NCBI GenBank assembly: GCA_000004695.1
Contig: CM000154.2
Location: 2,816,001-2,880,000, forward strand
Origin: Dictyostelium discoideum
Lineage: Eukaryota
Direction: 5' to 3'
Length of the DNA stretch: 64,000 nt
The position numbers and the translations under genes are program-made. Under the pieces are notes generated by a model. The model was given only the letters and a program-made list of their open reading frames with translations. It was not told the origin of the DNA and made no database searches. Below are positions 44,682 to 64,000 of this stretch, one piece after another. The number at the start of each line of letters is the position of its first letter. The first letter of the stretch is position 1.

Positions 44682-46469
44682 ATGGATTTATTAACAGCAT
44701 ACGATGACTCTGATGAAGAAGAGTTAACAAATACAAATACAAATACAAATACGAATACAACCACAACCACAACAACAACAACTACAACTACAACAGAAAC
44801 TACACCAACAATAAATAACAACAACAACAACAACAATAATAATAGTAATAAAACTATAACATCATTTAAACCAAGTAATTTAGCACCAATAGTAACATCA
44901 ATAAGAGTTGTAGAAAATAAAATTAATCCAAATGATAAGATATTATTATATAATCCAACAGTGGAAAGTTTAGAAGGTGATATATTTGGACCAAAGAAAC
45001 CATTTTCATCAAATGATAAAAAATTAGATCCTAAATTTAAAAATCATACAAATGGTTTGGTTGAAGATTATCATATAAATGATTATGCATTCAATCAACA
45101 GGTATTATCATTTAAAACTAATGGTTATTCAGAGAATCCAAATAATAGTACAGAGTTTATTGGTCATAGAAAAGATGAAAATGATCATACCAAAAAGAAT
45201 AATAATAATAATAAAAATAAAGATAAAAGAAAAAGAAATATAACAGATGATCCATCAAATGTTAATGGATATTTAGGACCATGGGGCACCACTAAAGCAG
45301 AATTAGATTTTAAACAAGGTAGAGAGAATGATATGGTTTCAATTGAAACTGATTTAACTGAACAACAAAGAGCATTTATGGATTCACGTGTTAAAAAACA
45401 AAAAGGTAAAGATGAAGAAGGTGGTGATATTGATTCAACTGCGGCAGCTTTATCAAATACATCAATATTTCATGGTAAATCAAAGAAGGATTATATGGGT
45501 AGATCTTGGGTTGACCCACCAAGTGATCTTAGATTGGTCACACCTGATACATTTGTACCAAAGAAATTGATTCATAATTATACTGGCCATACCAAAGGTG
45601 TTGCTGCTATTAGATATATACCAAAGTATGGTCATTTATTATTATCAGCTGGTATGGATAATACTGTAAAGATTTGGGATGCCTATGGCGACCGTCGTTG
45701 TATTCAAACCTATATGGGCCATTCACAGGCAGTTAGGGATATTTGTTTCTCAAATGATGGTCGTAGATTCCTAAGTTGTGGATATGATCGTCAGACTCGT
45801 CTTTGGGATACAGAGACTGGTAAGATACTAAGTTCATTCACAAATGGTAAAATACCCTATTGTATCAAATTCAATCCAGATGATGATAAACAAGAACAAT
45901 TCCTTTGTGGTGGTTCCGATAAGAAAATCATTCAATGGGATATCAAATCCAATCAAATCGTTCAAGAGTATGATCAACATTTAGGCGCTGTCAATACAAT
46001 TACCTTCTTGGATGACAATCGTAGATTCGTCACCTCTAGTGATGATAAATCATTACGTGTTTGGGATTGGGGTATTCCAGTGGTCATTAAATATATTAGT
46101 GATCCTTCAATGCATAGTATGCCTGCCGTTGCATTACATCCAAAGGGTAAATGGTTCGCAGCTCAATCTTTAGATAATCAAATCTTAATCTATAGTGCTC
46201 GTGATAGATTCCGTATGAATAAAAAGAAACGTTTCTTGGGTCATAATGTTTCTGGTTACGCTTGTCAATTAGGTTTCTCTCCTGATGGTAAATTCATTTA
46301 TTCGGGTGATTCAACTGGTAAAGCTTTCTTTTGGGATTGGAAAACTTCAAAAATCATTAAAACAATTAATGCTCATAATAATGTTTGTATTGGTATTGAA
46401 TGGGCTCCCTTAGAACCTTCAAAAGTTGCAACTTGTAGTTGGAATAATGAAATTAAACTGTGGGATTAA
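44682..46469 (+). CDS. Pre-mRNA splicing factor PRP17/CDC40 (WD40 repeats), 595 aa, single exon
   Basis: The C-terminal ~310 aa align nearly residue for residue with human CDC40. Ours: HTKGVAAIRYIPKYGHLLLSAGMDNTVKIWDAYGDRRCIQTYMGHSQAVRDICF...DKSLRVWDWGIPV...SMHSMPAVALHP...NQILIY...KLWD*. Human: [54 protein letters not shown]...DKSLRVWEWDIPV...SMHSMPAVTLSP.... The N-terminus has (ACAAAT)n/(ACA)n-encoded TNTNTN/Tn tracts. Confidence 0.9.
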   Translation: MDLLTAYDDSDEEELTNTNTNTNTNTTTTTTTTTTTTTETTPTINNNNNNNNNNSNKTITSFKPSNLAPIVTSIRVVENKINPNDKILLYNPTVESLEGDIFGPKKPFSSNDKKLDPKFKNHTNGLVEDYHINDYAFNQQVLSFKTNGYSENPNNSTEFIGHRKDENDHTKKNNNNNKNKDKRKRNITDDPSNVNGYLGPWGTTKAELDFKQGRENDMVSIETDLTEQQRAFMDSRVKKQKGKDEEGGDIDSTAAALSNTSIFHGKSKKDYMGRSWVDPPSDLRLVTPDTFVPKKLIHNYTGHTKGVAAIRYIPKYGHLLLSAGMDNTVKIWDAYGDRRCIQTYMGHSQAVRDICFSNDGRRFLSCGYDRQTRLWDTETGKILSSFTNGKIPYCIKFNPDDDKQEQFLCGGSDKKIIQWDIKSNQIVQEYDQHLGAVNTITFLDDNRRFVTSSDDKSLRVWDWGIPVVIKYISDPSMHSMPAVALHPKGKWFAAQSLDNQILIYSARDRFRMNKKKRFLGHNVSGYACQLGFSPDGKFIYSGDSTGKAFFWDWKTSKIIKTINAHNNVCIGIEWAPLEPSKVATCSWNNEIKLWD

Positions 46470-46638
46470 AAATAATTATAATAATAATATTAATAATAAT
46501 AAAAAAAAAAAAAAAACTAGATAGAAATTATTTTATTTATTTTGTTTTATTTATTTTTATTTGTTTTTTTATTTATTTTATTTCATTTATTTTATTTTAT
46601 TTATTTGTTTTATTATTATTTTTTAATTATTATGATTT

Positions 46639-49600
46639 TTATTTTTTTTGGTTATTGTTACCCATTTCATCATCGTCATTGTTATCCATTTCATCATCAT
46701 CATTGTTATCCATTTCTTCATCATAGAAGTCATCCTCCTCATCATTTCCACCCTTGGGTACAACAAAAAATTCATCTTCACTTTGTTCATCACTATCATC
46801 ATTATTATCATCATGATTATCTTTGTTGTTGTCTTGATCAGAGTTTTGAATTGATTGATTTGAATTATTATTTATTTGATTTGATTTATATATATGATCA
46901 AAATCAATTGTTGTGTGTATTAAAAATTTTTCCCAAGTATTATCTTTTGCTAAAACCTTATAGGTACCAATAACGTATAAACCTAACTTGGCTCTTGTTA
47001 GTGCTACATTGATACGTCTACGATCTGAGAGGAAACCAATACCAAATTTTTCGATTGATCTTACACATGACATAATGATGATATCTTTTTCTGAACCTTG
47101 AACACCATCAATTGTTGAAACTGAAATATTTAAATTATGATGTTCAGATCTATTTAGTTGTTCTTTGATTTGATTCATTTGTAATTTATAGGGAGTAATT
47201 ATACCAAATGATAGCTTTTTACATTCTGGATATTTTTCAATTAGTTCCTTTATTAAAGTAAATACCTTATCAATTTCATCTTGATTCATTATGGATTTTT
47301 TAATAACTTTTTGATTTGATTTTGGTAAATCAAAAAATTTCATCGGTCCAAATGAAGGATCGAAATGGAATTTACAATTGTTATAGGAATCTATTGAAAC
47401 GTTTTCACCATCTTTTAAAGTTCCGTTATAGAATTCTTCAGATATGAATTTTGATGTCACTGGATGCATACGATATTGTGTATTTAAAAATTGGACATCG
47501 ATCGATTTGGCTAATCTTTCAAATAATGATATTTTTAAACCACAGTCAGCACCTTGTTTGGAAAAAATAGTTGGTGGCAATTGAACTGGATCACCAACTA
47601 AAATTAACTTTTTAACAGAACCTAATGATAGTGGAATAATTGAGGTTGGTTCTGAAGATTGCGTAGATTCATCAATCAAAACAATATCTGGAGAAAAGTT
47701 TTCAAAAATAGCCTTTGAACCACTTCCAGCTAAAGTTGAGAAAACAATAGACGCTGATTTGATGAGGTTAATTCTTCTTGATGAATTTTTATTTTTAAGA
47801 GAAATTTTTTGACATTCTGGTGATATTTTTTCTTTTCTGCCAGTTCTAACCATGTTTGGTTTAAATATTTGACCATCACTATTTAATAGATTTTTTAAAC
47901 ATCTTTTTGCAACTTCATCTACTGATGCATGTGAAGGACCACATACCAAAATTTTGAACTTTTTGTCAATAGCTAATAAAACTGAAAGTAAATAATTGAT
48001 GGTTGTGGTTTTACCTGTACCTGGTGGACCTTGAATCAATGTTATACCACTCTCAACTAAAGATGATTTAATAGCATTAAGTTGTGATTCATTTAATTTT
48101 TCTTTACAAATTGTTTCCAAGGTTGGTGGGAATTTCATCATTTTTTGGTTCAAATTATTATTGCACCCTGGATTAAAAATAAGATTTTTAATAAATGGTG
48201 ATGCCTTAAATTCTTGAATGCTTCTAATGAATGTTACACTATTTGAAATTTTATTATAATGAATTGATGATTGAGTACTTGAATTTAATGACTTAGTAAA
48301 AAAGTGTGTTGGATTTGAATATAACAAATCGCAAACTATTGATTGTTGATGTAGGCTACCTTGCATTAAATTTGAAGTTTTTCTTACTATTCCAAATGTA
48401 AATTTTGTGCCATCTAAGCCTATTACTTTGAATAATAATATATCACCTACTGAAATTTCTTCCAGTTTATTTCTATTACCATGAATGATTAGTTCAACAG
48501 TTATAAATTTAGTTTGACGACTTATTTGGACAACTTCAATTGCTTCATTCATTTTAATTTTATCGAAACCTTCAAAAGTTCCATCTTTTGCACTATTAAT
48601 CCCATTAAGTGCATTAATTCCATTTTCAACTTGAGCTCTAAAGTCATCGAAAATTAATGGTTTATTTACTATTTGGTATTCTTTTTCTCCTGTATAATTA
48701 TCTGATAATTCACCTATACCATTTGGTTTTAGCAATGGTATTTTCGAAGGTTCACAACTTAAAATTAGATTTAAAGTTTCATCTGGACTTATTGATATTA
48801 CATCAACATAACTGTATATGTAATCAGCCTTAATCTTTGTATTATTATTATTATTATCATTATTATTTGATTTTTTGGTTCCAATGCTATGGACAGATAT
48901 TGTTTCATTTTTAAATAATTGATGAATTTCAATAAATAATAATTCTAAAACAGTTTCTAATCTTTCAGATTCATTCAATTGAAAATTTGGAATCTTTATT
49001 ATTGGAGATATCTTTGATTGAAAATCTTGAATCATTGTAACTTTAGATTTCTCTAAACACCTTGGATCGAATTTAATTTTGTTTTTTGCTAATTCACTTT
49101 TTAAATCATTGAAGGTAGTTCTATTACCTTTTGTTAAATTCCTTAACTCTATATTCTGGTAGTGATGATTAAACTCTATTAAAGCCATTAATGTTAATGT
49201 TTTTTGATATATCAAATTGACAGAACTTTTACGACTTAAATTTTCAGAGGGAATCAATTGATTTAGAGTTCTATTACAATTATTAATCTGTTGTTCAAAT
49301 GATTTTGTATCTTCTTCAATGATCCTTTTTAATTTGTTTAATTTGTTTTGGTTATTGTTTTCATTCTTTAATAATTTATTCAATTCATTGAGAATAAAAA
49401 GAACACTCTTAGGATCTTCAAATATTTTCATTAATAAACTATTTTTTAAACTTTTTTCAATATCAATTGTACTAGCTATTGGATTTGATAATGTTTGTTT
49501 TGGAGTTGTTATCATATCTAGTTTTGGTAAAGCAATTGTAGCTGGTATTGAAGTTGGGACAGCCGCTGGTGTTGTTGTTAATGTTGGTACAACTTGGTTT

Positions 49601-50901
49601 GTAGTAGTAGTTGTATTTAAACTTGGAGTTGGTAACAATGGGACCAATTTTGGAAGTGATATATCTTTGAATAATTCATTAATATCTTTAAACTTTTTTA
49701 ATCTTATTGAGTTTTCCATATGAATAAATTCAACAATAATTCTAAAGAAAGAATTTTGGATTGAAGAAGCAATATTTCTATCTGTTACAAAAGGATCCAA
49801 TACGATCATAGTACTTTTTAGCAAATCTTCATTAACAAGGGATGATCTTTTAAGTAATGGGCCATTTTTACATAGTGTACCACCGCCACTTGAATGACTG
49901 ATTGAAATAATATTCTCCTTATAGTTGAAAATTGAATAGTAGTTAAAGAATAGGTAGAAAAGTTGATCAATTTTTAATTTATTTTTACTTGAATCAAACT
50001 TATCAAAACTTTTAAATTCATAAAATTCAAAAGAATCAATTCGTTTTAAAATTGGATTTGTTGAATAGCTATTTAATAGTTGAGGTGATTTAGTTTGTAA
50101 ATTTGGTAGAATTGGTGTACTAATCGATTGAAGGAAGTGAATTACCATATTAACCAAACAGAAGGAACTAAATGTATGTTTTGATGCGTCATTCAAATTT
50201 TTACAGCTTGCCCACCATTTAACCAATAATGATAGAATGATATATCTATTATCTATGGAACAATATTCTTTCAATAATAATGAATTAAAATAAGCCTTTG
50301 ATGAATTGCAGCTCATATCGAAATGATACTTTGATGATTTCTCTACAAACCTAATTATTGGTACAGTTGCACTTAATCTCTTTTCAATGATTGTGTATAA
50401 CTTTGTTGACTCTAAATATTTGGAAACCACCTCTAAATGAGTTACTTGATTTTCATTTTGATTGATTTTGAAATTAACATCTAAATCACTACCCTCTAAT
50501 GATAATCCAGTTAAAAATGAACCATAGAGTTGAATAGATGAATCCTTAAATTTATTTGATAAAAACATTTCCAATCTATTGAAACTTTTTTCCTTTTTAC
50601 TAACTCTTTTACATTTAATTTTGTTGAATAGGATAATAAGATCATGGGTTATAGCTTTTTGATGTTTTGGAATTTGATAATTTAAATAAAAATCTGGTAT
50701 ATATTCCTTTAAATAATATGCCATATTTAATATATTTTTTTTAAAATCATTACTATGATATCCTTCTTCAGTAGGTTGTTCTTTTCTAAAGGCCTCAAAT
50801 AGTTTTATTGGGTAATCATCACCAATATTTTTTCTACTCTCAGTTTTATTTTCATTAAATTCTTTGTAAATGTTGTTGAAAATTGTAATTTCATCATTAT
50901 T

Positions 50902-50948
<47 letters not shown>

Positions 50949-51645
50949 TATCATTATCATTATTATTATTATAATTATTATTATTATTTAAAGTATTTGA
51001 GTTTGAGTTTGAGTTTGAGTTTGAGGTTGGTTTTTGAGTTTGAGTTTGAGGTTGAGATTGCGTTTGTGTGATTTTTATAACATCTGGAACCTGTTTTAAA
51101 ATGCCAGTAGCCAATGAAGTTTCTTTTAATAATCTAACCTCTTCAAATAGATTTTTAATGGTCATGATTATATTTCCACCATCGAAAGGAAGAGAAAAAT
51201 TAGGGATTTCAAAATAAATAGATGCACCATCAATGATTTCAATTGGTTTTGAAAATTCACTAAGATTTCTTGTAAATATTTTCTTAATTCCAAATCTTGA
51301 CTGAACACTTTCCAATATTGCTGAACATTTTGAAAAATTTAATCCATAAGCTTTGCAATGCTCTTTTAAATATTTTCTTTGACAAAAAAAATTAAATTCA
51401 ATGACCATTCTTAGAACAAGATATTGATTGTAAAAAATACTTGATTTAATTGATTCATTGGATTGATTTTTTAACATTGCCTTCAAACTATGTAATAATT
51501 TACCTAATAAACCATCTCTTCTACTTTTAGATTTTTTAACAAAATCTTTCATTAAATTTAATTCTATTTCATTGCCTTTAAATTGATTTTTAAAACTATC
51601 TATTACTTGAATTTGATCATTAATATCGATTTCTTTGAAAACCAA
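46639..51645 (-). CDS. Fusion protein, copy 1: Cid1/Gld2-family nucleotidyltransferase (Pol-beta NTase + PAP-associated domain) joined to a UPF1/Mov10-like SF1 RNA helicase, 1668 aa, single exon
   Basis: NTase motif LYGSFLTGLSLEGSDLDVNF (hG[GS]...DxD) at ~50465-50530, with a third acidic residue in KYHFDMSCN. PAP-associated domain is ...FSSFCLVNMVIHFLQ. A T/P-rich linker, a coiled coil and a beta-barrel-like segment (ELIIHGNRNKLEEISVGDILLFKVIGLDG) follow. SF1 motifs: I GPPGTGKTTTI (~48010), II VLIDESTQSSEP, III LILVGDPVQLPPT, IV FLNTQYRMHP, V STIDGVQGSEKDIIIMSCVRS, VI GFLSDRRRINVALTRAK. Acidic tail ...DDDEMDNNDDDEMGNNNQKK. A (GAT)n stretch encodes poly-D. Confidence 0.85.
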
Positions 51646-52145
51646 TTCAAAAATATTATTCCTTTGCGCTTTTTTGATTATTAAAAAAAAAAAAGAAAAA
51701 AAAAAAAAAAAAAAATTAATATAAATAAATATATAAATAAATAAATAAATAAATAAGTAAATAATAAAAAAATAAATAAATGATAAATAATAATTAAATA
51801 AATTATCTAAAAATTAATATTAAAAAAATATTTACACATCTTGGTTTATTTATTTATTTATTCAATAAATAAAAAAAAAAGTTGAAAATTAAATGTAAAA
51901 AATGATTTAAATATTTTTTTATAGGGAGAAGTTTAAAAAAAAAAAACGATTTAAATTTTTTTTTTATAGGTTTTGTTTTTTTTTTTTTGAATCAAGGGAA
52001 AATTTTAAAAAAAAAAAAAAAAAAAAAATTTTAAAAATCGTAAAATTCATCAATTATTAAAAAATCTGAGACATGAAAATTATAATGGACATAATTAAAA
52101 AATAATTTATTATTATTTTATTTATTTGGTTTATTTTGTTTTATT

Positions 52146-52202
52146 TTAGAACCTTCAAAAGTTCCAACTTGCAGTAGCGATAATGAAATTAAACTGTGGG
52201 AT
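52146..52202 (+). pseudogene. Relic of the PRP17/CDC40 3' terminus (last ~18 codons + stop) carried along by the tandem duplication
   Basis: 52146..52202 gaaccttcaaaagttccaacttgcagtagcgataatgaaattaaactgtgggattaa would encode EPSKVPTCSSDNEIKLWD*. The true PRP17 end at 46413..46469 encodes EPSKVATCSWNNEIKLWD*. The downstream 3'-flank taaaaataattataata...agatagaaattattttatttatttt is also conserved. Upstream sequence is unrelated to PRP17. Confidence 0.65.
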
Positions 52203-52324
52203 TAAAAATAATTATAATAAAAAAAAAAAAAAACAAGATAGAAATTATTTTATTTATTTTATTTTATTTATTTTATTTTTATTTTTATTTATTTTTTTTA
52301 TTTTATTTATTTTATTTATTATTA

Positions 52325-55300
52325 TTATTTTTTATTATCATGATTTTTATTTTCTTTGTCGTTGTTGCCCATTTCATCATCGTCATTGTTATCCATTTCA
52401 TCATCATTGTTATCCATTTCTTCATCATCATAAAAGTCATCCTCCTCATCATTTCCACCCTTGGGTACAACAAAAAATTCATCTTCACTTTGTTCATCAC
52501 TATCATCATTATTGTCATCATGATTATTATTATTATTATTATTATTTGTTATTTCTCCACCATTATTTTCATTCTTTATCTCTAATTGATTTTCATTTTC
52601 TTTTTTATTTTCATTTTCATTTTCATTTTTATTTTCATTTTTATTTTCGTTTTCGTTTTCATTTTCATTTTCATTTTTATTTTTATTTTCATTTTCATTT
52701 TTATTTTCATTTTCATTTTCATTTTCACTTTTATTATCAATAGTATTATTATTATGATTATCTTTGTTGTCTTGGTTAGAGTTTTGAATTGATTGAATTG
52801 AATTATTATTTATTTGATTTGATTTATATATCTGATCAAAATCAATTGTTGAGTATTTTAAAAAATTTCCCCAAGTATTATCTTTTTCTAAGACCCAAGA
52901 GGTACCAATAACGTATAAACCTAACTTGGCTCTTGTTAGTGCTACATTGATACGTCTACGATCTGAGAGGAAACCAATTCCATATTTTTCGGTACATCTT
53001 ACACATGACATGATAATGATATCTTTTTCTGAACCTTGAACACCATCAATTGTTGAAACTGAAATATTTAAATAACGATGTTCAGATCTGTTTAATTGTT
53101 CTTTGATTTGAATCATTTGTAATTTATAGGGAGTAATTATACCAAATGATAGCTTTTTACATTCTGGATATTTTTCAATTAGTTCCTTTATTAAAGTAAA
53201 TACCTTATCAATTTCATCTTGATTCATTATGGATTTTTTAATAACTATTTGATCTGATTTTGGTAAATTAAAAAATTTCATTGGCCCGAATGAAGGATCG
53301 AAATGGAATTTACAATTGTTAAAGGAGTCTATCGAAACATTTTCACCATCTTTTAAAGTTCCGTTATAGAATTCTTCAGATATGAATTTTGATATCACTG
53401 GATGCATACGATATTGTGTATTTAAAAATTGGACATCGATCGATTTGGCTAATCTTTCAAATAATGATATTTTTAAACCACAGTCAGCACCATCTTTTGA
53501 AAAAATAGTTGGTGCTAATTGAACTGGGTCACCAACTAAAATTAACTTTTTAATAGAACCTAATGATAGTGGAATAATTGAGGTTGGTTCTGAAGATTGT
53601 GTAGATTCATCAATCAAAACAATATCTGGAGAAAAGTTTTCAAAAATAGCCTTTGAACCACTTCCAGCTAAAGTTGAGAAAACAATAGAGGTTGACTTGA
53701 TGAGGTTAATTCTTCTTGATGAATTTTTATTTTTAAGAGAAATTTTTTGACATTCTGGTGATATTTTTTCTTTTCTGCCAGTTCTAACCATGTTCGGTTT
53801 AAAATTTTGACCATCACTATTTAATAGATTTTTTAAACATCTTTTTGCAACTTCATCTACTGATGCATGTGAAGGACCACATACCAAAATTTTGAACTTT
53901 TTGTCAATAGCTAATAAAACTGAAAGTAAATAATTGATGGTTGTGGTTTTACCTGTACCTGGTGGACCTTGAATCAATGTTATACCACTCTCAACTAAAG
54001 ATGATTTAATAGCATTAAGTTGTGATTCATTTAATTTTTCTTTACAAATTGTTTCCAAGGTTGGTGGGAATTTCATCATTTTTTGGTTCGAATTATTATT
54101 ATTATTATTATTATGTCCTGGATTATAAATAAGATTTTTAATAAATGGTGATGCCTTAAATTCTTGAATGGTTCTAATGAATGTTACACTATTTGAAATT
54201 TTAATATAATCAATTGATGATCTAGTGCTTGGATTTAATGATAAAGTAAAAACATATGTTGGATTTGAATCAAACAAATCACAAACTATTGATTGTTGAT
54301 GTAGGCTACCTTGCATTAAATTTGAAGTTTTTCTTACTATTCCAAATATAAACTTTGTGCCATCTAAGCCTATTACTTTGAATAGTAATATATCACCTAC
54401 TGAAATTTCTTCCAATTTATTTCTATTACCATGAATGATAAGCTCAACAGTTTCAAATTCAGTTTGACGACTTCTTTGGACAACCTCAATTGATTCATTC
54501 ATTTTAATTTTATCGAAACCTTCTAAAGTACCATCTTTTTTACTTAGAATGATCCCATTGAGTGCATTAATTCCATTTTCAACTTGAGCTCTAAAGTCAT
54601 CGAAAATTAATGGTCTCATTAAGTTTTGATATTGTTTATCTCCTGTAAAATTATCTGATAATTCATCAATACCAGTTGCTCTTAGCAATGGTATTTTCGA
54701 AGGTTGACAACTTAAAATTAGATTTAATGTTTCTTCTGGACTTATTGACATTACATCAACATAATCGTATATGTAATTAGCCTTATTATTATTATTATTA
54801 TTATTATTATTTTTTGATTTTTGTATCACGAATACAGAACCTGTTTCCATTTGAAATAATTGATGAATTTCATTAAATAATAATTCTATAACAGTTTCTA
54901 ATCTTTCAGATTCATTCAATTGAAAAGTTGGAATCTTTATTATTGAAGAGATCTTTGATCGAAAATCTTTAATCATTGTAATTTTATCCTCTTTTATACT
55001 CTTTGGATCGAATTTAATTTTGCTTTTTGCTAATTCACTATTTAAATCATTGAAATTAGTTCTATTATCTTTTGTTAAATTCCTTAACTCTATATACTGG
55101 TAGTGATGATTAAACTCTATTAAAGCCATTAATGTTAATGTTTTTTGAAATATCAAATTGACAGAACTTTTACAACTTGTATTTTCAGAGGGAATCAATT
55201 GTTTTAGAGTTTTATTACAATTACTAATCTGTTGACTAAATGAGTCTTTTTCTTCTTCAATGATTTTTTTTAATTTGTTTAATTGATTTCGGATATTGTT

Positions 55301-56846
55301 TTCATTTTTTAATAAATTTTCCAATTCACTGAGAATAAAAACAACATTCTGTGGATTTTGAAATATTTTCATTAATAAACTATTTTCTAAACCTTTTTCA
55401 ACATTTATTGTAGCTGGTTTTGAAGTTTTAGTTGTTAGTGGAGTTGGTTTTGAGGTTGAATTTGTAGTTGTTGTTGTAGTTGGTGGAGCTGGTTTTGAAG
55501 TTGAATTTGTAGTTGAAGTTGGAGTTGGTGCAACTGTTTTTGTAATATTGGTATTTGTAGTTGTATTTGTAATCGGTAACAATGAAACTAGTGTTGGAAG
55601 TGATATATCTTTGAATAATTCATTAATATCTTTAAACTTTTTTAATCTTATTGAGTTTTCCATATGAATAAATTCAATAATAATTCTAAAGAAAGAATTT
55701 TGGATTGAAGAAGCAATATTTCTATCTGTTATAAATGGATCCAATACGATCATAGTACTTTTTAGCAAAGCTTCATTAACAAGGGATGATCTTTTAAGTA
55801 GTGGGCCATTTTTACATAATGAACCGCCGCCACTTGAATGACTGATTGAAATAATATTCTCTTTGTAGTTGAAAATTGAATAGTAGTTAAAGAATAGGTA
55901 GAAAAGTTGATCAATTTTTAATTTATTTTTACTTGAATCAAACTTATCAAAACTTTTAAATTCATAAAATTCAAAAGAATCAATTCGTTTTAAAATTGGA
56001 TTTGTTGAATAGCTATTTAATAGTTGAGGTGATTTAGTGTGTAAATTTGGTAAAATTGGTGTACTAATCGATTGAAGGAAGTGAATTACCATATTAACCA
56101 AACAGTAAGAACTAAATGTATGTTTTGATGCATCATTCAAATTTTTACAGCTTGTTCACCATTTAACCAATAATGATAGAATGATACATCTATTATCTAT
56201 GGAACAATATTCTTTCAATAATAATGAATTAAAATAAGCCTTTGATGAATTGAAACTCATATCGAAATGATACTTTGATGATTTCTCTACAAACCTAATT
56301 ATTGGTACAGTTGCACTTAATCTCTTTTCAATGATTGTGTATAACTTTGTTGACTCTAAATATTTGGAAACCACCTCTAAATGAGTTACTTGATTTTCAT
56401 TTTGATTGATTTTGAAATTAACATCTAAATCACTACCCTCTAATGATAATCCAGTTAAAAATGAACCATAGAGTTGAATAGATGAATCCTTAAATTTATT
56501 TGATAAAAACATTTCCAATCTATTAAAACTATTTTCCTTTTTACTAACTCTTTTGCATTTAATTTTGTTGTATATGATTTCAAGATCATGGTTTACAATT
56601 TTTTGATGTTTTGGAATTTGATTATTTGAATTAGGATCTGGTATAAAATTCCTTGAATAATATGCCATATTTAATATATTATGTTTAAAATCATTACTAT
56701 AATATCCTTCTTCAGTTGGCTTTTCTTTTTTAAAAACCTCTAATAGTTTTATTGGGTAATCATCACCAATATTTTTTCTACTTTCGTTTCTATTTTCATT
56801 AAATTCTTTGTAAATGTTGTTGAAAATTGTAATTTCATCATTATTT

Positions 56847-56899
<53 letters not shown>

Positions 56900-57526
56900 G
56901 TTGTTGTTATTATTGGTTAAAGTGTTTGGTGATTTTGATTGCGTTTGTGTGATTTTTGTAACCTTTGGTACCATTTCTAAAACACCAGTACCCAATGAGG
57001 TTTTTTTTAATATTGTAACCTCTTCACGTAGATTTTTAATGGACATGATAATATTTCCACCTTCGAAAGGAAGAGAAAAATTAGGGATTTCTAAATGAAT
57101 AGCACCATCAATGATTTCAATTGGTTTTGAAAATTCACTTGGATCTCTTGTCAATAGTCTCTTTGTTCCACCTAATCTTGAATGAATATTATCCAATTTT
57201 GGTGAATATTTTGAAATATTTAAACCATTGGTTTCACAATACTCTTTGAAATAAATTCTTTGATAATAAAAATTAAATTCGATGATCATTCTAAAAACAA
57301 GATATTGATTGTAAAGAATACTTGATTTAATTGATTTAAAGGATTGTTTTTTAAACATGGTCTTCAAATGACTTGATATTCCACCTCCTAAACTATTTCT
57401 TCTACTTTTAGATTTTTTTATAAAATCTTTCATTAAATTTAATTTTATTTCATTGCCTTTAAATTGATTTTTAAAACTATCTATTACTTGAATTTGATCA
57501 TTAATATCGATTTCTTTGAAAACCAA
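52325..57526 (-). pseudogene. NTase-helicase fusion gene, copy 2: colinear paralog of 46639..51645, interrupted by one in-frame TGA between the NTase/PAP module and the helicase module (pseudogene, or split into two ORFs)
   Basis: ORF 56156..57526 (456 aa: N-terminus, NTase motif LYGSFLTGLSLEGSDLDVNF, start of PAP domain) ends ...LLVKW* at TGA 56156..56158, where copy 1 has TGG (WWAS). The frame continues open as ORF 52325..56140 (...TSCKNLNDASKHTFSSYCLVNMVIHFLQ..., all SF1 motifs I-VI intact; the next true ATG is the M of VNMVIH). Copy-specific changes: a poly-N tract ((AAT)n) where copy 1 has poly-D, and a C-terminal (ENENKN)n expansion from (TTTTCA)n. Nucleotide identity to copy 1 is ~93% in the helicase core (one 200-nt stretch compared by eye) and lower elsewhere. 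Confidence 0.75.
52566..52735. repeat. (TTTTCA/TTTTCG/TTTTTA)n hexamer microsatellite inside the copy-2 helicase gene (encodes (ENENKN)n on the minus strand)
   Basis: ttttcattttcattttcatttttattttcatttttattttcgttttcgttttcattttcattttcatttttattt.... In frame within ORF 52325..56140; absent from copy 1. Confidence 0.8.
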
Positions 57527-58222
57527 TTCAAAAATATTATTTCTTTGCGCTTTTTCGATTATTAAAAAAAAAAAAAAAATTAGTTGACATATTTAAAAAA
57601 ATAAATCAAAAAATAAATAAATAATAAATAATAAATAATTAATATTTTAAAAATATTTACCCATCTTAATTTATTTATTTATTGAAGCTGTGTTCAATAT
57701 AGAATAAATAAATATAAAAAGTTTAAAATTAAATAATTTTTAAATTTATTATTACAGGCTTTGTTTTTTTTTTTTGAATTAAGGGAGAAGCTTTTTTTTT
57801 TTGAAAAGATTAAAAAAAAAAAATAAAAAATAAAAAAAAATAAAAATCTTTTTCAATCGTAAAATTCATCAATTAATATTTTCTATCTGAGATAAGAAAA
57901 TTTTAATAAACAACATAATTAAAAAACAATTATTTTTTAGTATTTAATTTTTTTTGGTTCAATTATTTTATTTTTATTTTATTTTATTTTTTTTATTTTA
58001 TTTGTTTTGTTGTCAATTTTTTTTTTTTTTTTTTTTTTTTTGGTTTTATTTTTCATTTTTTTAATTTTATTTATTTTTAATAAAAATTTATTATACAATA
58101 ATAGAGCACCCCAGAAACACAAAATGATTTAAAATATAAAAAAATTTAATTTTTTACATATCTCACACCTTCATTTCTGAATATAGTTTAGATTATTATT
58201 ATTATTATTGTTATTATCATTA

Positions 58223-58277
<55 letters not shown>

Positions 58278-58318
58278 TTTTGTGATTAAAAATTTTTTTT
58301 TTTTTAAAAATTTTTTGA

Positions 58319-58475
58319 CACTTAGATTTTACAGTTAGTTAAACTTAAAAACTTGAAAATTTTCAAGTTCTCTGTTACTTCATATTAATAAAAATTGCAT
58401 ATTATTTTCCACATGTGTCACTTAATAATAATTTCTGTTTATAAAAATTACCTATTATTTTAAATATATTAGTAA
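58319..58475 (+). promoter_or_regulatory. Conserved upstream module of actin paralog 1 (about -275 to -120 from the ATG)
   Basis: cacttagattttacagttagttaaacttaaaaacttgaaaattttcaagttctctgttacttcatattaat...ccacatgtgtcac...tttctgtttataaaaattacctattattttaaatatat. The same blocks appear upstream of paralogs 2 and 3. Confidence 0.5.
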
Positions 58476-58593
58476 AAAAAAAAAAAAAACTAGTTTAATA
58501 AACCTAATGTAATTTTAAAATAATTAAAAAAAAAAAAAAAAAATAACCAATAATAAGTTGTAAATATTCAAATAATAATCAAAATAATAAAAA

Positions 58594-59725
58594 ATGGAAT
58601 GTGAAGATGTTCGACCTATAGTTATTGATAATGGTTCTGGTATGTATAAAGCTGGTTTTGCTAGTGATGATGCTCCACGTACAATTTTTCCATCAATTGT
58701 TGGTCATCCAAAGTGCAATGGTTTTATGGTTGACATAGATCAAAAAGATTCATATGTTGGTGATGAAGCTCAATCAAAAAGGGGTATTCTAAATGTTAAA
58801 TATCCAATTGAACGTGGTATTATTACCAATTGGGATGATATGGAAAAAATCTGGTATCATACTTTTTATAATGAACTTGGTGTTTCCTATGGAACATCCA
58901 GTTCTCTTAACTGAACCACCACTAAATCCAAATAAAAATAGAGAGAAAATGACTCAAATCATGTTTGAAACTTTCAATACTCCTGAATTGTATGTTGCAA
59001 TTCAAGCTGTATTATCATTATATGCTTCTGATCGTACAACTGGTATCGTTTTGGATTCAGGTGATGGTGTTTCCCATACCGTACCGGTTTATGGTAGTTA
59101 TGCATTACCTCATGCAATTAGACGTTTACATTTAGCTGGTGGTGATCTTACTGATTACATGTGTAGAATGTTAAACTTTGAACGTTGTTACTCATTCACA
59201 ACAACTACTGAAAGAGAAGTAGTTAGAGGTATTAAAGAGAAATTAGCATATGTTGCATTGGATTTTGGAGCTGAAATGCAAACTGCAGCCTCATCATCTG
59301 CATTAGAGAAATCATATGAATTACCAGATGGCCAAGTTATTACAATCGGTAATGAACGTTTCCGTTGTCCAGAAGCACTTTTCCAACCGTCATTATTGGC
59401 TATGGACTATGATGGTATTCATGAAACAATCTATAATTCAATCATGAAATGTGATGTTGGTATTCATAAAGATTTATTTGGTAGTGTTGTATTATCAGGT
59501 GGTTCAACTATGTTCCCTGGTATTGCAGATCGTATGAATAAAGAATTAACTGCACTTGCACCATCAACAATGAAAATTAAAATTATTGCACCACCAGAAC
59601 GTAAATACTCTGTATGGATTGGTGGTTCAATTTTAGCTTCAGTTTCAACTTTCCAACAAATTTGTATTTCAAAAGAAGAATATGACGAATCTGGTCCATC
59701 AATTGTTCACAGAAAATGTTTCTAA
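58594..59725 (+). pseudogene. Divergent actin paralog with a 2-bp deletion frameshift (actin pseudogene, or a sequencing error)
   Basis: ORF 58594..58914 ([40 protein letters not shown]...[19 protein letters not shown]) switches frame to ORF 58793..59725 (...[39 protein letters not shown]...IVHRKCF*). Paralog 2 has cgtgttgctccagaggaacatcc (RVAPEEHP) where this copy has ggtgtttcctatggaacatcc, two nucleotides shorter (~58878-58900). It is otherwise full length. Confidence 0.7.
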
Positions 59726-59807
59726 TTTTTTAAAAGAAAAAAAATATATTTTTAAATCGAATCTAAAATTAGTTTTGGTCTGTGAAGTTGGCAAAAGAAA
59801 ATTAGCG

Positions 59808-60560: not shown

Positions 60561-60727
60561 TTTTTTTTTTTTTTATTGGTAAAAAAAAAAAAAATAAAAA
60601 AATAAAAAAATTAACAGTTTATTTTAATAAACCTTAAATAATTTAAAATCATTAATAAAAAAATAAAAAAACAATACAGAGTTATATATCACAAATAATA
60701 ATCAAATAATAATCAAAATAATATAAA

Positions 60728-61861
60728 ATGGAATGTAAAGAAGACCTAACAATAGTTATTGATAATGGTTCTGGTATGTGTAAAGCTGGTTTTGCTGGTT
60801 ATGATGCTCCACATGCAGTTTTTCCATCAATTGTTGGTCGTCCTAGACATACTGGTGTTATGGTTGGTATGGGTCAAAAGGATTCATATATTGGTGATGA
60901 AGCTCAATCAAAAAGGGATATTCTAAATCTTAAATTTCCAGTTGAGCGTGGTATTATTACCAATTGGAATGATATGGAAGAAATCTGGCATCATACTTTT
61001 TATAATGAACTTCGTGTTGCTCCAGAGGAACATCCAGTTCTCTTAACTGAACCGCCATTAAATTCAAAAGCAAATAGAGAGAAAATGCCTCAAATCATGT
61101 TTGAAACTTTCAATACTCCTGCAATGTATGTTGCAATTCAAGCTGTATTATCATTATATGCATCTGGTCGTGCAACTGGTGTCATTCTGGATTCAGGTGA
61201 TGGTGTTTCTTATACTGTACCAGTTTATGAAGGTAATACATTTCCACTTTCAATTACACGTTTACATTTAGCTGGTGGTGATCTTACTGATTACATGAGT
61301 AGATTATTATACACTGATTGTGGTTACTACTTTTCAACAAAAGCTGAAAAAGAAATAGTTAAAGATATTAAAGAGAAATTAGCATATGTTGCATTGGATT
61401 TTGAAGCTGAAATGCAAACTGCAGCCTCATCGCCTTCATTAGAGAAATCATATAAATTACCAGATGGTCGAATGATCACAATTGGTAATGAACGTTTCCG
61501 TTGTCCAGAAGCACTTTTCCAACCATCATTATTGGCTATGGACTATGATGGTATTCATGAAACAACCTATAATTCAATCATGAAATGTGATGTTGATTTT
61601 CATAAAGATTTATATGGTAATGTTTTATTATCAGGTGGTTCAACTATGTTCCCAGGTATTGCAGATCGTATGAATAAAGAATTAACTGCACTTGCACCAT
61701 CAACAATGAAAATTAAAATTATTGCACCACCAGAACGTAAATACTCTGCATGGATTGGTGGTTCAATTTTAGCCTCACTTTCAAGTTTCCAACCAAGGTG
61801 GATTTCAAAAGAAGAATATGACGAATCTGGTCCATCAATTGTTCACAGAAAATGTTGGTAA
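60728..61861 (+). CDS. Divergent actin-family protein, 377 aa, intact, single exon
   Basis: Colinear with conventional actin over the full length: [63 protein letters not shown]...[16 protein letters not shown]...[48 protein letters not shown]. Many substitutions relative to canonical Dictyostelium actin (MDGEDVQALV...HRKCF). Confidence 0.85.
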
Positions 61862-62280
61862 TTTTTTAAAAGAAAAAAAAAAAAATACTATTTTTTTAAT
61901 TAAATAAGAAATATATAAATGGTTGTTTAAAATTATTACCATGAATATTATAAGAATTACTATTTTTAAATATATAAACTGAGATGTAAATTAATAAAAT
62001 AATTTATTTTGCCAGAATGTAATAATTATATCTCACTAATAAAAATATCCATATAAGGAAATATTAAAAAAAAAAAAAAAAAACAGAAAATTTACATTCA
62101 TTTTTTTTATATTTTAAATCATTGATGATTTACACGTGCATTCTGAATATTTTCCTTGTTTTTTATTTTTTTTTTTTTTTTTTAATTATATAAAATTTTG
62201 TTTTTAAGTTTTTTTTTTTTTTTTAAGCAAAATATTTATTTTTCAAATTACAACATTATGACAACCAAAAGTGATTTCTA

Positions 62281-62510: not shown

Positions 62511-63668
62511 ATGGAATGCGAAGAAGTTCAAGCCATAGTTATTGATAATGGTTCTAGTGTGTGTAAAGCTGGTTTTGGTGGTGATGATGCTCCTCGTACA
62601 GCTTTCCCATCAATTGTTGGTCGTCCAAGATGTACTGGTTTTATAGTTGATATGGATAAAAAAGATTCATATTTTTGTAAAAAGAATTCGTGTTTTATGG
62701 GTCAAAAGGATTTATATATTGGTGATGAAGCTCAATCAAAAAGAGGTATTCTAAATGTTAAATATCCAATTGAACGTGGTATTATTACAAATTGGAATGA
62801 CATGGAAGAAATCTGGTATCATACTTTTTATAATGAACTTCATGTTGCTCCAGAGGAACATCCAGTTCTCTTAACTGAACCACCATTAAATCCAAAAGCA
62901 AATAGAGAGAAAATGACTCAAATCATGTTTGAAACTTTCAAAACCCCTGCAATATATGTTGCCAATCAAGGTGTATTATCATTATATTCTACTGGTCTTA
63001 CAACTGGTATCGTTATGAATTCGGGTGATGGTGTTTCTCATACTGTGCCAGTTTATGAAGGTTATATTTTACGTCAAGCAATTTTAAGTTTAGATTTAGC
63101 TGGTCGTGATCTTACTGATTACATGAATGAATTATTAACTGATCGTGGTTACTACTTTACAACAAAGGGTGAAAAAGAAATAGTTAGAGGTATTAAAGAG
63201 AAATTATCATATGTTGCATTAGACTTTGAAGCTGAAATGCAAATTGCCTCCGCATCGCCTGCATTAGAGAAATCATATGAATTACCAGACGGTCAAGTTA
63301 TTACAATTGGTAATGAACGTTTCCGTTGTCCAGAAGCACTTTTCCGACCATATACTGGTATTCATGAAACAATCTATAATTCAATCATGAAATGTGATGA
63401 TGATATTCGTAAAGATTTATTTGGTAGTGTTGTATTATCAGGTGGTTCAACTATGTTTCCAGGTATTGTAGATCGTATGAATAAAGAATTAACTGCACTT
63501 GCACCATCAACAATGAAAATTAAAATTATTGCACCACCAGAACGTAAATACTCTGTATGGATTGGTGGTTCAATTTTAGCCTCACTTTCAAGTTTCCAAC
63601 CAAGGTGGATTTCAAAAGAAGAATATGACGAATCTGGTCCATCAATTGTTCACAGAAAATGTTTCTAA
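62511..63668 (+). CDS. Divergent actin-family protein, 385 aa, with an in-frame 9-codon insertion and a 6-codon deletion relative to its neighbour
   Basis: [78 protein letters not shown]... carries a local duplication ([20 protein letters not shown]) inside the DNase-I-loop region. [12 protein letters not shown] lacks the SLLAMDYD block of paralog 2. The reading frame is intact to ...IVHRKCF*. Confidence 0.8.
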
Positions 63669-64000
63669 AAAAAAAAAAAAAAAAAAATTAGTTAAATTAA
63701 TAAAATAAAATAAAAATTATAAAAACAAAAAAAAAAACAAAAAAAAAAAAAAAGTATGGTAAAATAAAAATAAAATAAAAATTATAAAAACAAAAAAAAA
63801 AAAAATTAAAAAAAAAAAAAAATAGAATTAGTTTCTTGTCGATAAAAGAAATAATCACTCATATAAATTTTTTTCACTAGTGACATAATTTTGGCTCTAG
63901 TTACGTAATATATTATAGTAAAGCATTCGCTGAAAAAAAAAAGGTTAAAAATTAAAAAATAAAACAAAAAAAAAAAAAAAACAAAAAACTAAAAGTCTAA

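Follow-up and report, generated by a model that had tools for sequence, protein, structure and literature searches.

How a fragment of one gene comes to stand alone between two closely similar copies of another is the question raised by the Dictyostelium discoideum locus analysed here. In the window, by which we mean the whole 64,000-nt stretch (contig CM000154.2 of assembly GCA_000004695.1, positions 2,816,001 to 2,880,000; G+C content 24%), the splicing-factor gene PRP17 is followed by two genes on the opposite strand, each encoding a nucleotidyltransferase (NTase) fused to a helicase, and an orphan copy of the PRP17 C-terminus lies between them. We estimate with a probability of roughly 0.88 that this arrangement arose through a tandem duplication in the window lineage, which left the orphan tail as a relic and was followed by gene conversion between the copies.

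Smith-Waterman local alignment of 45800-52400 against 51600-58600 returned one collinear direct match, in which 46410-52148 corresponds to 52146-57981. The alignment totals 6066 columns, with 5079 matches, 430 mismatches and 557 gap columns, the latter mostly within low-complexity runs (mainly (AAT)n and (NE)n-type), and identity over the 5509 ungapped columns reaches 92.2%. A repeat finder independently reported direct pairs of 259-300 nt with start-to-start spacings of 5881-5953 nt (families D12-D18). The two units are adjacent, equally oriented and sharply ended, copy 1 occupying 46410..52145 (5736 nt) and copy 2 measuring 5836 nt, and the relatives with the gene at this site carry it in a single copy. 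Homology starts abruptly at TTAGAACC (46410 = 52146), where ...GGGCTCCC followed by TTAGAACCTTC... at 46410 pairs with ...GTTTTATTT followed by TAGAACCTTC... at 52146; left of this point PRP17 coding sequence faces AT-rich spacer, and end alignments detected no similarity upstream of the two starts. It ends at ...TTTTATTTTA (52148 = 57981), past which copy 1 runs into the relic and copy 2 into the single-copy spacer leading to the actin gene at 58594, the sequences right of 52148 and of 57981 being unrelated to each other in the end alignments. The single copy of D. cf. discoideum follows copy 1 as far as 52148 and copy 2 past 57981. The duplication spans the PRP17 tail (57 nt plus the stop codon), the shared 3' spacer (~170 nt), the convergent NTase-helicase gene with its first intron, and ~310 nt of the 5' flank of that gene. 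The first-pass annotation had proposed a direct duplication of ~5.7-5.8 kb that breaks inside PRP17, 57 nt before its stop codon, and carries the PRP17 tail, the convergent gene and its promoter, and it had suggested pairwise alignment with local identities as a check; the alignment bears out these claims, with similarity running through the PRP17 tail and the 3' flank. Its coordinates were accurate within 2-3 nt on the left, where the start lies at 46410-46413 instead of 46412, and within ~20 nt on the right, where the end lies at ~57981 and not at 57960.

The PRP17 gene (44682..46469, + strand) is a single ORF of 595 aa encoding a PRP17/CDC40-type WD40 splicing factor, with WD40/Prp19-type Pfam matches and orthologues named pre-mRNA-processing factor 17 that show 84-86% identity, the closest belonging to Dictyostelium species. 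Its C-terminus, LEPSKVATCSWNNEIKLWD followed by the stop codon TAA (46467-46469), lies inside the duplicated unit, which contains the last 19 codons and the stop (46410..46469, +). The second unit opens with LEPSKVPTCSSDNEIKLWD (52146-52202) and TAA at 52203-52205, so that the relic tail (52146..52205, +) reads L-EPSKVPTCSSDNEIKLWD up to its stop and has no upstream exon. A fuzzy search located the 57-nt tail exactly twice in the window, once without substitutions and once with 5, and the same 3' flank follows the real tail and the relic, as the first-pass annotation had described for an orphan C-terminus at 52146..52202. All 5 of the 57 positions that differ were changed on the relic side, since the real tail equals that of D. 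cf. discoideum at 57/57 positions and that of D. citrinum at all five sites. Four of these five changes are non-synonymous, and the Trp of the terminal WD motif is among the residues altered. The element is homologous to a part of a gene of which the rest is missing, and its changes are lineage-specific and unconstrained; judged from sequence, the pattern is that expected of an unconstrained fragment.

The junction also informs on how the two ends were joined. With the single-copy locus of D. cf. discoideum as a stand-in for the pre-duplication state, one parent is the upstream flank, which there reads ...CTTGTTTTATTTTA up to the breakpoint and TTTTATTTT... after it, and the other is PRP17, which reads ...CTCCTTTA up to the breakpoint and GAACC... 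after it. In the window the junction reads ...GTTTTATTTTA followed by GAACC..., and TTA (52146..52148) is common to both parents. The shared stretch would extend to TTTA if PRP17 had at that time the sequence CCTTTAGAACC found in both D. cf. discoideum and D. firmibasis, the CCC proline codon of the window being possibly a later change. Comparison of the junction with the D. cf. discoideum parents revealed no longer repeat at the two breakpoint sites. Since the ends share only TTA or TTTA, the join appears to be an illegitimate one at the level of microhomology and not the outcome of recombination between pre-existing repeats; end joining or template switching would be its mechanism. Scans of the region for tRNAs and Rfam families found no match, so that neither an RNA gene nor a tRNA-targeted retroelement accounts for the breakpoints.

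Syntenic loci in relatives were reached through PRP17 orthologues, and one more through an exhaustive HMMER search. The order GlnRS-PRP17-[X]-actin is kept across these loci, where X is nothing in D. citrinum (a 1.1 kb spacer without tblastn match, L002 11800-12889), one intact gene annotated with 1621 aa in D. firmibasis (L003 11944-16998), one frameshifted copy in D. cf. discoideum (L004 6819-11861) and two copies in the window, the only one of the four compared loci in the two-copy state. In all three relatives a search of ±10 kb around PRP17 found no second copy of its tail, and the first-pass annotation had reasoned that such a fragment in related species would contradict a duplication relic. 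Of the two species it had named for comparison, D. firmibasis indeed has one gene copy and one PRP17 tail, and the D. purpureum homologue turned out to lie elsewhere, beside Nup160, and is not syntenic. The PRP17-actin spacer of D. citrinum gave nothing except low-complexity noise against the window flanks in low-stringency blastn, which did not resolve the deletion scar. In D. cf. discoideum 11 of the 26 indels break the frame, including deletions of 8, 8, 8, 10, 11 and 64 nt outside homopolymers, and PRP17 beside it is a single open frame; so many frame-breaking indels next to an intact PRP17 indicate that this copy is a pseudogene. Synonymous divergence (dS) of PRP17 amounts to 0.121 between the window and D. 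cf. discoideum, 0.33 between the window and D. citrinum, 0.48 between the window and D. firmibasis and 0.49 between D. citrinum and D. firmibasis, yielding the tree (((window, cf. discoideum), citrinum), firmibasis). Together with the locus states, this tree implies a common ancestor that had the gene at this site, with loss from the site in D. citrinum, decay in D. cf. discoideum and duplication in the window lineage afterwards. Both copies are 51% identical in amino acids to the D. firmibasis orthologue, the neighbouring PRP17 being 89% identical, and the N-terminal and middle regions of the NTase-helicase reach 38-43%. As both copies are equidistant to D. firmibasis, the duplication is younger than the split from that species. 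The distance between copy 1 and copy 2 is 0.096, and those from each copy to D. cf. discoideum are 0.123 and 0.124; three-way site patterns group copy 1 with copy 2 at 375 sites, against 231 and 222 for the alternatives.

The identity of the two copies is mosaic, ranging from 78% to 100% in 200-nt intervals. Divergence had been put at ~7-15%, with helicase cores ~93% identical; the average of ~8% falls within that range, the local spread is wider, and the helicase cores are ~95% identical in amino acids. Gene-wide, the Nei-Gojobori method gives dS 0.139 and dN (nonsynonymous divergence) 0.086 between the copies, with omega 0.62. Identical runs of 284, 269, 173 and 134 nt occur, and the longest run in 2000 column shuffles had a mean of 81 nt and a maximum of 180 nt. 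A candidate conversion tract of 284 nt lies in the helicase region (47868..48151 = 53806-54089; 0 differences vs 20.3 expected, P=1.5e-9), another of 269 nt in the NTase region (50312..50580 = 56256-56524; 0 vs 17.1, P=3.9e-8), and a further identical tract of 173 nt at 49922..50094 = 55866-56038 (0 vs 11.3, P=1.2e-5), the expected differences being scaled from the divergence to D. firmibasis by the gene-wide ratio. The ratio of derived sites shared by both copies to copy-specific sites, with D. cf. discoideum and D. firmibasis as outgroups, was 35:22 in the low-divergence intervals and 50:137 elsewhere (Fisher P=3e-6), a measure independent of site constraint. Patches of the gene coalesce much later than the rest, as is characteristic of interlocus gene conversion; the tracts are longer than uniform divergence allows and constraint is not the explanation. 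The conversion suggested as a possibility in the first-pass annotation thus gains statistical support from run lengths, expected differences and the shared-derived ratio, direction and exact tract ends being beyond what two sequences can yield. Because conversion lowers the average, the mean divergence of ~8% underestimates the age of the duplication.

Regarding the duplicated genes themselves, both are read from the - strand. Copy 1 has an intact main exon (46639..51668), whose ORF at 46639-51645 comprises 1668 uninterrupted codons, and copy 2 has a main exon (52325..57549; ORF span 52325-57526) that keeps its frame along the alignment save for one in-frame TGA. Upstream of the ORF both copies show an ATG plus one base followed by GTAAAT, and an AG acceptor stands 23 nt before the first TTG of the ORF, in frame. 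We infer from this a tiny first coding exon in both copies, ATG+T at 51836-51839 before an intron at 51669-51835 (GTAAAT...AG) in copy 1 (51669..51839, -) and ATG+G at 57661-57664 before an intron at 57550-57660 in copy 2 (57550..57664, -); the annotated D. firmibasis orthologue has a short first exon and an intron in the same place. The second codon, following the ATG-plus-one-base exon, differs between the copies (Ser vs Ala). The 5' flank of copy 1 covers ~306 nt up to the junction (51840..52145), that of copy 2 reaches the right end of the unit (57665..57981) and is continued by single-copy sequence on to the actin gene, and the duplicated PRP17/NTase-helicase spacer now serves as the 3' flank of copy 2 (52206..52324).

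Pfam matches in the copy 1 ORF comprise an MTPAP-like/TUTase/NTP_transf_2 NTase palm at ~aa 335-462 (PF22600, PF19088 and PF01909, all above cut-offs) and an AAA_11/AAA_12 SF1 helicase at ~aa 1183-1561. Both copies contain the NTase motif YGSFLTG...GSDLDV; PAP_assoc was detected in the D. firmibasis orthologue, and the PDB alignments of the window genes reach ~aa 640-665. With a Pol-beta-type palm, GS and DxD motifs and a PAP-associated region, the N-terminal module is predicted to be an NTase of the Cid1/TUTase family. Both copies also retain the helicase motifs GPPGTGKT, DESTQ, GDPVQLPP and RRINVALTRAK, and the AAA_11/AAA_12 core with Walker A, Walker B (DExxQ) and motifs III, V and VI points to an Upf1-like SF1B helicase. 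Among solved structures, the closest to the helicase are Sen1, Upf1 and Smubp-2, and the closest to the NTase are TUT4/7, GLD-2, URT1 and Cid1. Orthology to Upf1, a nonsense-mediated decay factor, was considered and rejected: the Pfam scan of the window genes gave no Upf1 CH-domain match, and the family, in which a Cid1/TUTase-type NTase and an Upf1/Sen1-type helicase are fused, was restricted to Dictyostelia in the exhaustive HMMER search and has lineage-specific paralogues there.

The in-frame TGA of copy 2, which the first-pass annotation had not mentioned, replaces a TGG codon at 56156..56158 (-; LLVKW*TSCK vs LLVKWWASCK in copy 1). Its position is past the NTase palm match and before the PAP-associated region, and as assembled it truncates the protein after ~465 aa. 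An intron removing it was rejected as a possibility, the surroundings being collinear coding sequence nearly identical to copy 1 and devoid of a consensus donor. The two copies have evolved at equal rates, with 49 vs 52 amino acid and 151 vs 157 nucleotide changes specific to copy 1 and copy 2, respectively (Tajima counts with D. firmibasis as outgroup). Thirteen of the 14 indels between them preserve the frame, a count to which trinucleotide slippage in low-complexity codons contributes, and the remaining one, of 1 nt, falls three codons ahead of the stop codon. Nonsynonymous differences per site (pN) are far below synonymous ones (pS) in the helicase and NTase cores, and pN is similar to pS in the N-terminal and middle regions. 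Copy 2 therefore does not qualify as a processed or long-dead pseudogene, given the equal rates, the 13/14 in-frame indels and the single TGA as its only lesion, and over most of its history it appears to have been maintained in the same way as copy 1. The 1-nt deletion gives copy 2 a different and longer C-terminus. In its C-terminal tail, copy 2 carries a ~200-nt expansion of (NE/NK)n-coding repeats at ~52514-52760 that has no counterpart in copy 1.

The right-hand neighbour of the array, the first actin gene (58594..59728, +), is single-copy with respect to the duplication and, by its ORF and synteny, fixes the order PRP17 - [NTase-helicase] - actin. At least three tandem actin genes lie right of copy 2 (58538-59728, 60693-61864 and 62725-63689), and the fetched loci contain one annotated actin gene in D. 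citrinum, one in D. firmibasis and four in D. cf. discoideum. The actin genes form a second array of variable copy number directly beside copy 2.

The sequence of events that best accounts for the locus starts from an ancestral order GlnRS - PRP17 (+) - one convergent NTase-helicase (-) - actin (+). The segment from 57 nt before the PRP17 stop to ~310 nt upstream of the gene start would have been copied directly beside itself in the window lineage. With the left break inside PRP17, the intact PRP17 would have been kept at the left, and the second unit would start with the orphan tail, which lacked a promoter and upstream exons and would have decayed neutrally since. Both gene copies would have received the full promoter-proximal flank, the first intron and the 3' spacer, so that both could be expressed. 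They would then have diverged, fastest in the rapidly evolving N-terminal and middle regions, while patches, most of them in the NTase and helicase cores, were made alike again by recurrent non-allelic gene conversion, and copy 2 would have gained its TGG-to-TGA nonsense mutation recently.

Other explanations have to be weighed against this scenario. That one locus was assembled twice is a negligible prospect: the general difficulty of assembling AT-rich DNA is all that speaks for it, and such an artefact would not leave 430 substitutions, 557 gap columns, copy-2-specific changes such as the 200-nt expansion and the nonsense codon, and a unique junction. A further reading takes the relic for a used exon, such as an alternative 3' exon or a piece of a new gene, entered through the acceptor-like ttttattttag to which the first-pass annotation had drawn attention. 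That sequence is present, and a T-rich tract and AG do stand directly before an open 19-codon frame ending in TAA. Nevertheless, it consists of the AT-rich flank ...TTTTATTTTA abutting the G of GAA(CC), so that the junction itself made the AG, and nothing suggests its use; a T-rich run with AG would be expected often in a sequence of such low G+C content, the + strand upstream is the antisense of the copy 1 promoter and first exon, with no donor or exon noted there, and the relic-specific, mostly amino acid-altering substitutions have cost the terminal WD motif its Trp. We regard a functional exon as very improbable. The high identity of the cores could also reflect purifying selection alone, without any gene conversion, and the identical tracts do sit in conserved catalytic domains of low pN. 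This we find quite improbable, as synonymous sites are likewise identical between the copies inside the tracts, which are not mutationally frozen: 26-29% of copy 1 sites within them differ from D. firmibasis, including ~40% of third positions (40/94 and 33/86). Moreover, constraint cannot produce the 4.4-fold difference in shared-derived ratio between the tract regions and the rest.

The timing of the duplication is where our preferred reading meets most resistance. Several points weigh against it: the breakpoint can be placed only within a few nucleotides, in low-complexity flanks that have diverged since; the identical tracts were picked post hoc, even if their P values survive any reasonable correction; and the TGA of copy 2 may be recent, strain-specific or a sequencing error. 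In addition, the copy-to-copy dS of 0.139 is about as large as the PRP17 dS of 0.121 between the window and D. cf. discoideum, the neutral 3' spacer is star-like (13/13/16), and four-taxon informative sites comprise 85 for copy 1 with copy 2, 63 for copy 1 with D. cf. discoideum and 35 for copy 2 with D. cf. discoideum. The duplication may therefore precede the D. cf. discoideum split, with a later return to one copy there. The array of D. cf. discoideum would then have collapsed to a single chimeric copy by unequal crossing-over, which would also delete the relic without a scar, and conversion in the window lineage would make the copies look young. Besides the dS comparison, the relic has accumulated 5/57 = 0.088 changes in a single lineage, against ~0.06 per lineage since the split, and the excess of 63 over 35 sites is significant (P=0.006) and confined to three regions (39 vs 7, Fisher P=7e-4); in its 5' flank D. 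cf. discoideum lies closer to copy 2 (22 vs 43), which fits a chimera whose 3' part comes from copy 1 and whose 5' part comes from copy 2. Those three regions are, however, the richest in low complexity, where alignment is least reliable, and the grouping of copy 1 with copy 2 is the best supported overall, both in the four-taxon and in the three-way counts. Copy-number parsimony also favours a single gain, and the inflated branch of the D. cf. discoideum pseudogene distorts distances. We consider an older duplication possible, though unlikely, and retain a duplication in the window lineage as the better account.

The locus offers a clean case of the birth of a tandem gene duplicate in an extremely AT-rich genome, by a microhomology join inside a neighbouring gene. 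The relic provides a built-in neutral clock where conversion blurs the age of the copies, a caution for dating Dictyostelium paralogues by average identity. Annotators should avoid treating the relic as an exon and should record the stop codon of copy 2. A literature search found no description of the locus or of the NTase-helicase gene family. Loss, pseudogenisation and duplication of one gene across four close relatives, together with a permuted domain order, make it a candidate for a rapidly turning-over gene of RNA metabolism or conflict. In both window copies and in the D. firmibasis orthologue the NTase comes first and the helicase last, whereas eight homologues (D. purpureum, Heterostelium, Cavenderia, Acytostelium and P. 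violaceum) start with the helicase and end with the NTase and PAP_assoc; in D. purpureum both lie in one continuous ORF (L001 13882-17202). Some homologues bear neighbouring locus tags or share a contig (P0155/P0156, P0157/P0158 and P0153/P0299, in Acytostelium, P. violaceum and Cavenderia). The family may have undergone recurrent local duplication in other dictyostelids, as these sequences suggest, and circular permutation by tandem duplication and fusion would be an attractive explanation of the domain order. More speculatively, the PRP17-actin interval could house a fast-evolving, birth-and-death gene of RNA surveillance or genome conflict, whose order was permuted by an earlier duplication and in-frame fusion of a helicase-to-NTase ancestor, the window array being a second round of the same process; we hold this broader proposal to be doubtful.

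Among known systems, the nearest to the window genes are the helicase-NTase fusions of other Dictyostelia (D. purpureum DICPUDRAFT_150267 and others), the best matches among 1.8 billion representatives, which share the two catalytic modules and the pre-helicase region at 30-47% identity and differ in the reversed domain order, helicase first in 8/8. The N-terminal region resembles Cid1, GLD-2, TUT4-7 and URT1 in its MTPAP-like_central, TUTase and NTP_transf_2 matches, in its structural hits (E 1e-25 to 1e-19) and in its GS...DLD motif; unlike that family, the window NTase shares one polypeptide with an SF1 helicase and has long, fast-evolving low-complexity regions on either side, and no zinc knuckles were detected. 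With Upf1, Sen1 and Smubp-2 the genes share strong AAA_11 and AAA_12 matches and structural similarity to Sen1 and Upf1 (E 1e-69 to 1e-57), but neither the CH domain of Upf1 nor the N-terminal domain of Sen1 was detected and they are orthologues of neither protein, the database name 'regulator of nonsense transcripts-like' given to relatives reflecting the helicase core only. As for the event itself, tandem duplication with a fragment of a neighbouring gene, followed by interlocus conversion, is a textbook process in the globin, opsin and many plant R-gene arrays. The present locus shares with them direct adjacent units, a break inside a neighbour gene, a dead partial copy, mosaic identity and one disabled copy; what sets it apart, a microhomology of 3-4 nt, the absence of flanking repeats as mediators and a total of two units only, is no difference in kind, and the event is of an ordinary type, a standard tandem segmental duplication that is here cleanly documented.

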